Shown piece after piece: positions 60,754-62,853 of a stretch of 64,000 nucleotides of DNA (the first letter of the stretch is position 1; each line of letters starts with the position of its first letter). The translations under genes and the position numbers were made by a program. A model generated the notes under the pieces. The model saw only the letters and a program-made list of their open reading frames with translations, was not told the origin of the DNA and did not search any database. Where the stretch lies: the NCBI RefSeq assembly GCF_044324875.1, contig NZ_CP172185.1; one strand, 5' to 3'. The DNA is from Escherichia coli (GTDB lineage Bacteria > Pseudomonadota > Gammaproteobacteria > Enterobacterales > Enterobacteriaceae).

Positions 60754-62853
60754 TTAAACCATCGCGTTATCCATCTGCTTTTCAAATGCCTGACGAATTA
60801 ATCCCATCACATAAGGAAGCTCAGAAAGATCGCTGAAACCTACTTCAACATCGCCATTGCCCCAACGGCCTATATCTGTGACATCTTTAGCCATACATTT
60901 TGGGTCAACCAGTTCATGAAATGGCATATTTAGTGATAAACGTAAGCGACTTTTTTGCGGCACCACATCAACAAAATTCGTCTCCGCTTTGAAGGCAACA
61001 TAGAGCTTAAATATTTCTCGCGTAACCCCAGCGTCCAGCGCCATAACGGCATCAGAAAGGCTGTCAAAAAGTACGCGGATATGCGTACCTTCTTCAAGTT
61101 GTGGGAAATCAGCAAGGACATATCCCGTTCCTCGTTCAACGACAGTGCGATAACGAGCCAACACGTCTTCCGAAAGTTTGGGGATCGCCCAGACGTCTAT
61201 TGCCAGCTCGGCCAGACGTTCCGCTCTCTTTTGTATCGCTGCACGATCCCATATTTCACATTGCCCTAACCCCGTGTTCAGGCGTAATGGACTTTCCTTA
61301 AAGCCACCTTTTATATCTCGCTTCTTCGCAAATGGACGGTCGCTGTAGCTTGAGTTATAGCCAGTTAACGTTAAATTACCCAACGTATGGAGCCACTTTT
61401 TATGGATTCGCTTCCATTCCGGACCAAGGTCATCGCGCCACTTCGCCGATAAATTAGGGTTCTGCGGCATGATATGTTCAATCGTATAAGTGTCAACATA
61501 GGCCCGTTCTTTACGATCGTGGTTTTCAAATCTACGTAGCCAATAGCTGCGATTACGGAAGTTGTAGAGGTCGCGAGTTTTCAGTTCACGTTGAAATTCA
61601 TCATCATCCGGGAAACGACGGTAGGAAGGCAGTTCCAGCAAATGTGCCGCAATGCTCTCCAGATAACGCTCTTTATCCAGCACTTTGTAAAACGTGGCGA
61701 AGGTTTTAGTAAATGAGTTAGTGGGAATGGCACAGACTGCGCGCCGGAAGATATACGACTCAATTAAACGCGTGGCACTTAAAAAATCCGCGGCAGAAAG
61801 AATTCCCTGTTTATAGTCATGATAAAGCACCAACAGGAACGGCCAGGCAGCATCGACTTTCAGCTCGCGTAGATCCTGAAATGCCATCTTTAAGGTTTTA
61901 TCCTTTTCGCTATCCAGCGCCATCGCACAAAAATAGTCAGCAAACGTACGAATATCCGCAACCAGCGCCCCCATCCCGCGATCCATCACTCCTGGTTTTC
62001 GCGCATAGCGTTTAAAGGCTTCATAGACATCACCAATTCGCGGAATCTCACCTGTTTTTACCGTCAGATAATTACGCATAAAACTGTCGAAATAGTCAGT
62101 GTATCCCTTCTGACCAAACGCCAGCTCCATGGGCCGCGAGTAATCGTCGTACAGTTGGCTTTGATGTTCTGGCTCCAGCCCCATCAGAACATAGTTGCGA
62201 ACCAGATCCGCCTGACTCAGCGCTTTTCCTGTTGAGTTCATGCTTTCGAAGATTAGTTGCGGATTATCCTGACCGCGATTCAAGGCGACATCCACAATCA
62301 GCAGTTTGGAAAGTCCCTGACATAACGCGGTGAAATTGCCGTGGAGTTTGCCTATTTGCTCATGGAAAAACTCAAAATTCTCTTTCACGCGTAGAGAGCA
62401 ATTTTCTGCCAGCGGTTTTTGTCTAATCAATGCCAGCAGGCTTTCTCTGTCCGTTTGCGTGAGCAGTAACTTAAAACCACGCTCGCCCGATTCATACGGA
62501 TTGAGCAGATAATAGTTTCGTAATTTCATGGCGGAGAAACCATCCATCACCTCGTCATCGCCAAGATGTCTGGACAACGCTTCCAGCAATAACATCGCCG
62601 TTGTCAGGCGTTGCTGACCGTCAATCACCAGTAATGGCGAAATCCCCGAAACCTGATATATGCCCTGTTCGATATACACCACCGAGCCGATGAAATGCGC
62701 CGGGATATCATCACGCTGCCCGGCACGTATTACATCGTCCCAGAGCTGGCGGCACTGTTCCTCTGACCATGAATAAGTACGCTGATAAATGGGAATAACG
62801 AATTGCTGAGAGCGTTTTAGAAAATCGAGTAATCGGGCTTCGGTGGCTTTCAT
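60754..62853 (-). CDS. DUF262 (ParB-like NTPase) plus DUF1524 (His-Me/HNH-like nuclease) protein, GmrSD-like type IV restriction-like, with C-terminal extension
   Basis: 699 aa; N-terminal IPIYQRTYSW and VIDGQQRLTT (DGQQR); distal TIEHIMPQNPN and LHTLGNLTLTGYNSS; AGGAG 7 nt before ATG; about 150 aa extra at C-terminus. Confidence 0.8.
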   Translation of the reverse strand: MKATEARLLDFLKRSQQFVIPIYQRTYSWSEEQCRQLWDDVIRAGQRDDIPAHFIGSVVYIEQGIYQVSGISPLLVIDGQQRLTTAMLLLEALSRHLGDDEVMDGFSAMKLRNYYLLNPYESGERGFKLLLTQTDRESLLALIRQKPLAENCSLRVKENFEFFHEQIGKLHGNFTALCQGLSKLLIVDVALNRGQDNPQLIFESMNSTGKALSQADLVRNYVLMGLEPEHQSQLYDDYSRPMELAFGQKGYTDYFDSFMRNYLTVKTGEIPRIGDVYEAFKRYARKPGVMDRGMGALVADIRTFADYFCAMALDSEKDKTLKMAFQDLRELKVDAAWPFLLVLYHDYKQGILSAADFLSATRLIESYIFRRAVCAIPTNSFTKTFATFYKVLDKERYLESIAAHLLELPSYRRFPDDDEFQRELKTRDLYNFRNRSYWLRRFENHDRKERAYVDTYTIEHIMPQNPNLSAKWRDDLGPEWKRIHKKWLHTLGNLTLTGYNSSYSDRPFAKKRDIKGGFKESPLRLNTGLGQCEIWDRAAIQKRAERLAELAIDVWAIPKLSEDVLARYRTVVERGTGYVLADFPQLEEGTHIRVLFDSLSDAVMALDAGVTREIFKLYVAFKAETNFVDVVPQKSRLRLSLNMPFHELVDPKCMAKDVTDIGRWGNGDVEVGFSDLSELPYVMGLIRQAFEKQMDNAMV

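Follow-up and report, generated by a model that had tools for sequence, protein, structure and literature searches.

Within a 64,000-nucleotide stretch of Escherichia coli DNA (RefSeq assembly GCF_044324875.1, contig NZ_CP172185.1; hereafter the window, meaning the whole of that stretch), a minus-strand gene of the immigration control region (ICR) encodes a stand-alone, single-chain protein in which an intact DUF262 domain, a helical linker and an intact DUF1524 domain are followed by a fourth folded domain, DUF5655. With moderate confidence, we read this protein as a nucleoside triphosphate (NTP)-gated His-Me defence nuclease of the GmrSD family, equipped with an accessory DUF5655 tail that would aid DNA binding or discrimination. 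Its domain structure can be described directly, with nucleotide (nt) positions counted from the start of the window and amino acids (aa) from the start of the protein:

60754..62853, minus strand: complete gene for the 699-aa GmrSD-family protein with DUF5655 (single ATG-initiated open reading frame (ORF), Pfam domains)
62188..62829, minus strand: DUF262/GmrSD_N ParB-like NTPase domain, aa 9-222 (Pfam E-value (E) 3.6e-34)
61525..62172, minus strand: all-helical linker, aa 228-443 (full-length AlphaFold2 model, predicted local distance difference test (pLDDT) mostly >85)
61207..61614, minus strand: DUF1524/GmrSD_C His-Me finger nuclease domain, aa 414-549 (Pfam E 2.5e-27)
60757..61185, minus strand: C-terminal extension, aa 557-699, a short linker helix followed by DUF5655 (Pfam match aa 593-692, nt 60778-61077)

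Conservation was judged on an alignment of 44 full-length homologues, across which the whole length of the protein, tail included, is strongly conserved. The GmrSD_N motifs are YQR at residues 23-25, DGQQR at 78-82 (nt 62608-62622) and FESMN at 202-206; D78-R82 is invariant and the other motifs of the domain are conserved in the same alignment. The nuclease motif E459-H460...P463...N493...N500 lies at nt 61354-61479, with EHIMPQN at residues 459-465, N493 within GNLTLT and N500 within YNSSY, and of these positions P463 and N493 are invariant while E459, H460 and N500 are at least 90% conserved. The protein carries both sets of motifs that define the GmrSD family, namely QR/DGQQR/FxxxN at the N-terminus and the (D/E)H...N...N His-Me finger at the C-terminus, and in the predicted structure helices 228-443 supply the helical linker of approximately 200-400 residues between the two domains that is described as a feature of the family (PMC4619093). 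The full-length AlphaFold2 model has a pLDDT of 88.2 and a predicted template-modelling score (pTM) of 0.72, and residues 8-557 match the PADLOC models HEC-06 (E 2.6e-58) and Orf5 (E 8e-213). An earlier first-pass annotation, made from the sequence alone, had assigned the gene to the DUF262/DUF1524 GmrSD family on its NTPase and His-Me motifs, an assignment borne out by two intact Pfam domains and by a full set of motifs conserved in the 44 homologues.

The same annotation had reported a C-terminal extension of about 150 residues, matching no recognisable domain. We place the extension at 142 residues (558-699), because Pfam GmrSD_C reaches only residue 549 and the PADLOC models for relatives that lack a tail (Orf5, HEC-06) reach only 555-557. 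Its content is recognisable: residues 593-692 correspond to Pfam DUF5655 (PF18899), with E-values of 1.8e-10 for the whole protein and 6e-12 for the tail alone, and the match recurs in all 44 aligned homologous tails. DUF5655 was equated with COG3586, 'predicted transport protein', the name used by the Joint Genome Institute (JGI) for proteins that have DUF5655 as their sole Pfam domain; COG3586 has also been assigned in a published table to a short ICR remnant ORF in Shigella. Nor is the tail peculiar to the window protein, since it is the standard end of a large, conserved subfamily of 700-aa proteins found in 28% of complete E. coli genomes. The description of an extra C-terminal domain that lacks an assigned function did hold, in that DUF5655 is catalogued and, in the literature searched, is mentioned by a single paper and there only in passing, with no published function found.

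Structure prediction of the C-terminal region, suggested as a check by the first-pass annotation, gave a confidently folded domain (AlphaFold2, aa 557-699, modelled with 44 diverse tails; pLDDT 92.6) with the order helix, four strands, long conserved loop, one strand, helix. The predicted alpha-beta-alpha sandwich superposes on solved members of the YdhG/YjbR 'double-wing' fold, and DUF5655 is accordingly predicted to fold like the small 'double-wing' DNA-binding proteins. At the level of sequence, the tail shows no significant similarity to YdhG-like proteins (DUF1801), MmcQ/YjbR (DUF419), the T4 MotA C-terminal 'double-wing' domain or McrB-N, and it is uncertain what YdhG and YjbR themselves do. 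Nor did sequence comparison reveal homology to DUF1801 or PF04237, a weak DUF1801 match (E 0.03) arising in only one of the 44 tails; PDB sequences, searched with the tail by sequence and by profile, returned no match, and a Foldseek search of AFDB50 returned close homologues only among its top 50 matches, adding no function. The conserved positions K616, Y618, K622, N626, R638 and N642 lie along the strands, and the D650-P651 pair and the G665-N-G667 loop show little or no variation. These conserved Lys, Tyr, Asn and Arg residues are the only indication that the domain may bind DNA through its sheet surface.

We found only one other genuine DUF5655 architecture, that of the PADLOC family PDC-S18 (COG3586), in which an N-terminal PD-(D/E)XK-like domain precedes one to three tandem copies of DUF5655. 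The C-terminus of this family matches residues 590-690 of the window protein (E 1.6e-22), whereas its nuclease part is PD-(D/E)XK-like and not DUF262/DUF1524, with the motif D54...E69-x-K71 and weak matches to Pfam HSDR_N_2 and NucS_C; it has been termed a putative endonuclease (PMC1189080). DUF5655 is thus the C-terminal partner of two unrelated nuclease types and is sometimes present in tandem, which is the pattern expected of a substrate-binding module.

Other apparent architectures did not survive inspection. Fusions of DUF5655 to HsdS, HsdM or the HsdR C-terminus, listed by a first survey of Pfam co-occurrence, were rejected as independent fusions; the proteins P0355, P0356 and P0296 are deletion chimeras of neighbouring genes, because the last 100-280 residues of a GmrSD core remain in front of their DUF5655. 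The many database proteins of 188 aa and 249 aa that consist of DUF5655 only were rejected as a separate family, being the tails of GmrSD genes split by inserted DNA. Metagenomic examples of such split copies are found at L008 1750-6567, where an IS1595-type transposase gene is inserted, and at L009 3114-6750.

The complete architecture of GmrSD_N, GmrSD_C and DUF5655, 700 aa in length, occurs at 68-72% identity across Gammaproteobacteria, Kiritimatiella, Litorilinea (Chloroflexota), Desulfobulbus and Binatia, and also on plasmids of cyanobacteria, Alphaproteobacteria, Actinobacteria and Deinococcus and in one phage record. Judged by these identities, the protein is unusually conserved for the product of a defence gene. 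The window protein is 98% identical to intact proteins within a 90%-identity cluster of 595 member sequences, and a homologue is present in 1520 of 5426 complete E. coli genomes (28%). Two alleles account for the E. coli copies: that of the window in 114 genomes, and a commoner one, approximately 72.5% identical to it in nucleotide sequence, in about 1370. All sampled E. coli copies lie within the ICR next to type I restriction-modification (R-M) genes, the commoner allele between yjiS and symE in every sampled genome and the window allele on the yjiA side, divergent from hsdM.

Among characterised relatives, the DUF262-linker-DUF1524 core and the DGQQR motif are common to the window protein and HEC-06, a GmrSD-like antiphage protein found within Hma systems; the Glu-His motif of the His-Me domain reads EHICP in HEC-06 and EHIMP in the window protein. 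HEC-06 has been validated experimentally as an antiphage protein, and defence requires Q79/R80 of DGQQR and E471/H472 of EHICP (Payne et al., preprint 10.1101/2024.01.29.577857). The HEC-06 models, however, span 558-569 positions and end where the DUF5655 tail of the window protein starts, and the genomic context differs too. The best solved structural match to the full-length model is DndI (PDB 9jfl; template-modelling score (TM) 0.52-0.59), followed by SspE (6jiv/7drr; 0.24-0.37) and BrxU (about 0.29), and DndI is also the best match among PDB sequences (E 2e-11). DndI and SspE, which are phosphorothioate-sensing DUF262-HNH nickases, have the domain order of the window protein and an NTPase-gated nuclease, but at only 16-18% identity and with no DUF5655; linked dndBCDE or sspABCD genes are named neither in the annotated homologous locus nor among the annotations that cover the remainder of the window, where only core genes and type I R-M are listed. 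The type IV enzymes BrxU, Eco94GmrSD and TgvAB, directed at DNA with glucosyl-hydroxymethylcytosine (glc-hmC) or hydroxymethylcytosine (hmC), have the same Pfam families and motifs and are likewise embedded in other defence operons, but they are very distant from the window protein and lack DUF5655, and the PADLOC model mREase_IV matches best over aa 8-94.

The first-pass annotation had also proposed that terminal extensions set modification specificity in this enzyme family, and this is not how the relatives have been described. The N-terminal DUF262 domain is stated to be the sensor in BrxU and SspE (PMC11411939), and sensing of the DNA mark is likewise the task of the N-terminal domain in DndI and SspE, where NTP hydrolysis changes how far apart the N- and C-terminal parts lie and thereby alters DNA binding and nicking (PMC11662687). 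The polarity of the response differs among these enzymes, with BrxU and Eco94GmrSD cutting modified DNA and DndI cutting DNA that lacks the host phosphorothioate mark. Variable C-terminal additions to GmrSD proteins (DUF4268, DUF4357, DNA_binding_1) were listed by Machnicka et al. with no function attached (PMC4619093). The outcome that the first-pass annotation had named as a refutation, a tail standard to characterised GmrSD, SspE or BrxU proteins, did not arise: DUF5655 is absent from every solved relative and from the PADLOC models for GmrSD, BrxU, SspE and HEC-06.

The enzymology that we propose is taken from these relatives. By analogy with HEC-06, DndI, SspE and BrxU, NTP binding and hydrolysis in DUF262 would gate a conformational change, which would in turn govern how DNA is bound and how the His-Me domain nicks or cleaves it; invading phage or plasmid DNA would be the target. 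DUF5655 would serve as an accessory nucleic-acid-binding module of the YdhG/YjbR 'double-wing' type, a role suggested by its predicted fold, its conservation pattern and its domain partners, and would give the nuclease additional DNA affinity or help it to discriminate substrates. Several points weigh against this role. The domain is mildly acidic (median net charge -3, isoelectric point (pI) 5.2), which is unusual in a DNA binder; the same fold class holds the iron-handling proteins frataxin and CyaY as well as protein-binding type III secretion chaperones, so the fold alone is no proof of DNA binding; even for YjbR, binding to DNA is predicted rather than demonstrated; and no experiment on the GmrSD-DUF5655 subfamily was found in the published text that was covered.

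The most serious competing explanation, which we regard as possible but clearly the less probable, is that DUF5655 does not bind DNA and is instead a protein-interaction or regulatory module that switches the nuclease on or off, for instance through dimerisation, autoinhibition or the sensing of a phage protein. When the window and nine loci were searched with a profile in all six frames, no second DUF5655 was detected in neighbouring genes, which argues against a homotypic docking partner. It is unlikely, in our view, that DUF5655 is instead an unrecognised reader domain for a DNA mark, structurally near McrB-N and YjbR, that sets the target specificity of the subfamily; one form of that idea would have host type I methylation read as 'self', in the manner of DndI and SspE but keyed to methylation.

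Functional coupling of our GmrSD-DUF5655 nuclease to the adjacent type I R-M system is a related explanation that we consider improbable. The nuclease would read host type I methylation as 'self', as DndI and SspE read their mark, or would guard the type I enzyme as PrrC does, with DUF5655 as the reader or docking element. In unrelated phyla the gene does turn up again next to or within type I R-M operons, in some cases with start and stop codons that overlap, and such operons contain or adjoin four of the five distant homologues; COG3586 proteins have also been noted in a type I cluster, and the closest solved structure, DndI, is that of a nuclease that senses a self mark. The association is loose in other respects. 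Position and orientation relative to hsdM, hsdS and hsdR vary (between S and R, between M and S, after R, convergent or divergent), the fifth distant homologue, in Desulfobulbus, is solitary, and E. coli BL12 retains an intact copy although the type I system next to it is deleted. Moreover, the nuclease is 68-76% identical among E. coli, Citrobacter, Oceanimonas, Kiritimatiella and Litorilinea, whereas outside Enterobacteria the identity of the neighbouring HsdM and HsdR is only 21-40%. The contrast across phyla (68-72% for the nuclease against 21-40% for HsdM/HsdR) indicates no co-evolution with a type I partner, and the same contrast, for loci L002, L003, L005 and L006 against L001, indicates that the nuclease gene moves between type I loci of different families. 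The gene has neither the fixed operon position nor the co-evolution with HsdM/S/R expected of a type I subunit or obligate partner, so that obligate partnership with the type I enzyme is argued against, and harbouring unrelated defence genes is a recognised, general feature of type I loci (PMC4619093, 10.1101/2024.01.29.577857, PMC11411939).

A decaying gene that no longer has a function is a very improbable reading. In its favour, three of six sampled E. coli copies of the commoner allele are broken, each by a different lesion, and metagenomes often contain deletion chimeras and copies cut by insertion sequences (IS). Against it, the window copy retains its full length and all of its catalytic motifs, its product is 98% identical to intact proteins of the 595-member cluster, and the family is strongly conserved from end to end, tail included.

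The broken copies of the commoner allele are located at L010 9001-11093, L012 301-2393 and L015 301-2394. Their lesions comprise 1-nt deletions at different sites in E. coli O157:H7 EC4115 and MINF_2E and a stop at codon 239 in AST217, and a different lesion in each copy points to repeated independent inactivation. Elsewhere (L011 6001-8094, L013 301-2394, L014 301-2394 and L019 26385-28478), the commoner allele is an unbroken ORF of 697 codons. RefSeq divides each of these four ORFs into a partial DUF262 pseudogene and a second entry, a 'GmrSD' coding sequence (CDS) of 387 aa, a split that looks like an annotation artefact. In EC4115, the same ICR holds a second, different DUF262 and HNH gene pair by yjiA (L010 17702-19353), so that one type I system has a GmrSD-like locus on each side.

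The gene, its family and its tail domain are already in databases and in the literature; the find is an ordinary one and its novelty is low. Both the gene and the family had been catalogued, since they appear in the ICR list of He et al. 2015 and in cluster CLS_001 of a 2025 study (PMC12373910). He et al. (PMC4437046, Fig. 8) listed a '733-aa' ICR GmrSD homologue, UTI89_C5048 / APECO1_2080. The corresponding UTI89 ORF, of the commoner allele, is intact at 697 aa, is 75.8% identical to the window protein over its full length and carries DUF5655 (profile E 2e-61); the published 733 aa equal these 697 aa plus 36 in-frame codons upstream. D782_3934 of strain FGI57, which is 83% identical to the window protein and shares the gene order cstA-yjiX-yjiA-Fic-GmrSD<>hsdM, is listed in CLS_001 (Supplementary Data 6 of PMC12373910). 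CLS_001, with 116 members, is the first-numbered of the 20 commonest enterobacterial GmrSD clusters in that paper, for which cluster representatives were synthesised and tested against T-even phages; the study as a whole reports five additional active systems. Neither PMC4437046 nor PMC12373910 mentions the C-terminal domain. With the family in the ICR of approximately 28% of complete E. coli genomes and approximately 70% identical across phyla, the practical value of knowing the role of DUF5655 is small but real: if DUF5655 is a substrate-recognition module, it would help to predict which phages and plasmids are restricted by a very common enzyme of clinical and laboratory E. coli.

Turning to the locus itself, window positions 59500-64000 are 98% identical to E. 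coli chromosomes of known annotation, in which the gene order is yjiA, BrnA (with a BrnT remnant), Fic and GmrSD, then hsdM, hsdS and hsdR, and later yjiS. The GmrSD locus is the E. coli ICR, with BrnA, Fic and GmrSD all on the minus strand and hsdM/hsdS/hsdR divergent from them; elsewhere the window consists of core E. coli chromosome (creC, radA through deo, opgB to tsr). A RefSeq protein 98% identical to the GmrSD protein, WP_109551218.1, is labelled 'GmrSD restriction endonuclease domain-containing protein', and the sequence AGGAG is located 8 nt 5' of the GmrSD ATG. A search of NCBIfam with the GmrSD, Fic and BrnA proteins gave no match. Over long stretches, core genes included, the best match to the window among complete E. 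coli genomes in the collection was approximately 98-98.7%, and for want of a higher match the window lineage lacks a close representative among the 5426 complete genomes. The features that flank the GmrSD gene are:

59976..60710, minus strand: Fic-family gene, 43 bp downstream of GmrSD (ORF and RefSeq annotation)
62854..63137, no strand: AT-rich divergent intergenic region of 284 bp, from the GmrSD start to the hsdM start (sequence)
63138..64000, plus strand: 5' part of the type I R-M methyltransferase gene hsdM (open frame of 287 codons reaching the window end)

In the homologous locus L001, the type I genes comprise hsdM (781 aa), hsdS and hsdR. A scan of the 284-bp GmrSD-hsdM intergenic region for promoter and terminator consensus sequences found no promoter-like or terminator-like site. 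The sole strong sigma-70-like consensus in the locus lies at 61469-61496 on the minus strand (TTGACA, 16-nt spacer, TATCAT), within the GmrSD coding region near the His-Me motif and directed at the 3' part of the gene and Fic, and may well be a coincidence. The Fic gene may be co-transcribed with GmrSD; the pairing of the two is also found in strain FGI57 and is absent from Citrobacter and the distant homologous loci. The Fic ORF has a degenerate Fic/Doc motif, QFFFDGNKRTSR, at aa 182-193, with Gln in place of the catalytic His and a Doc-like NKR, and gives a weak match to PADLOC PDC-S24 (E 8e-5). Farther along, the BrnA antitoxin gene occupies window positions 59535-59886 on the minus strand and is orphaned, because the BrnT toxin gene after it is reduced to a 63-nt remnant; in the homologous Citrobacter locus (L006), BrnT and BrnA are both intact.

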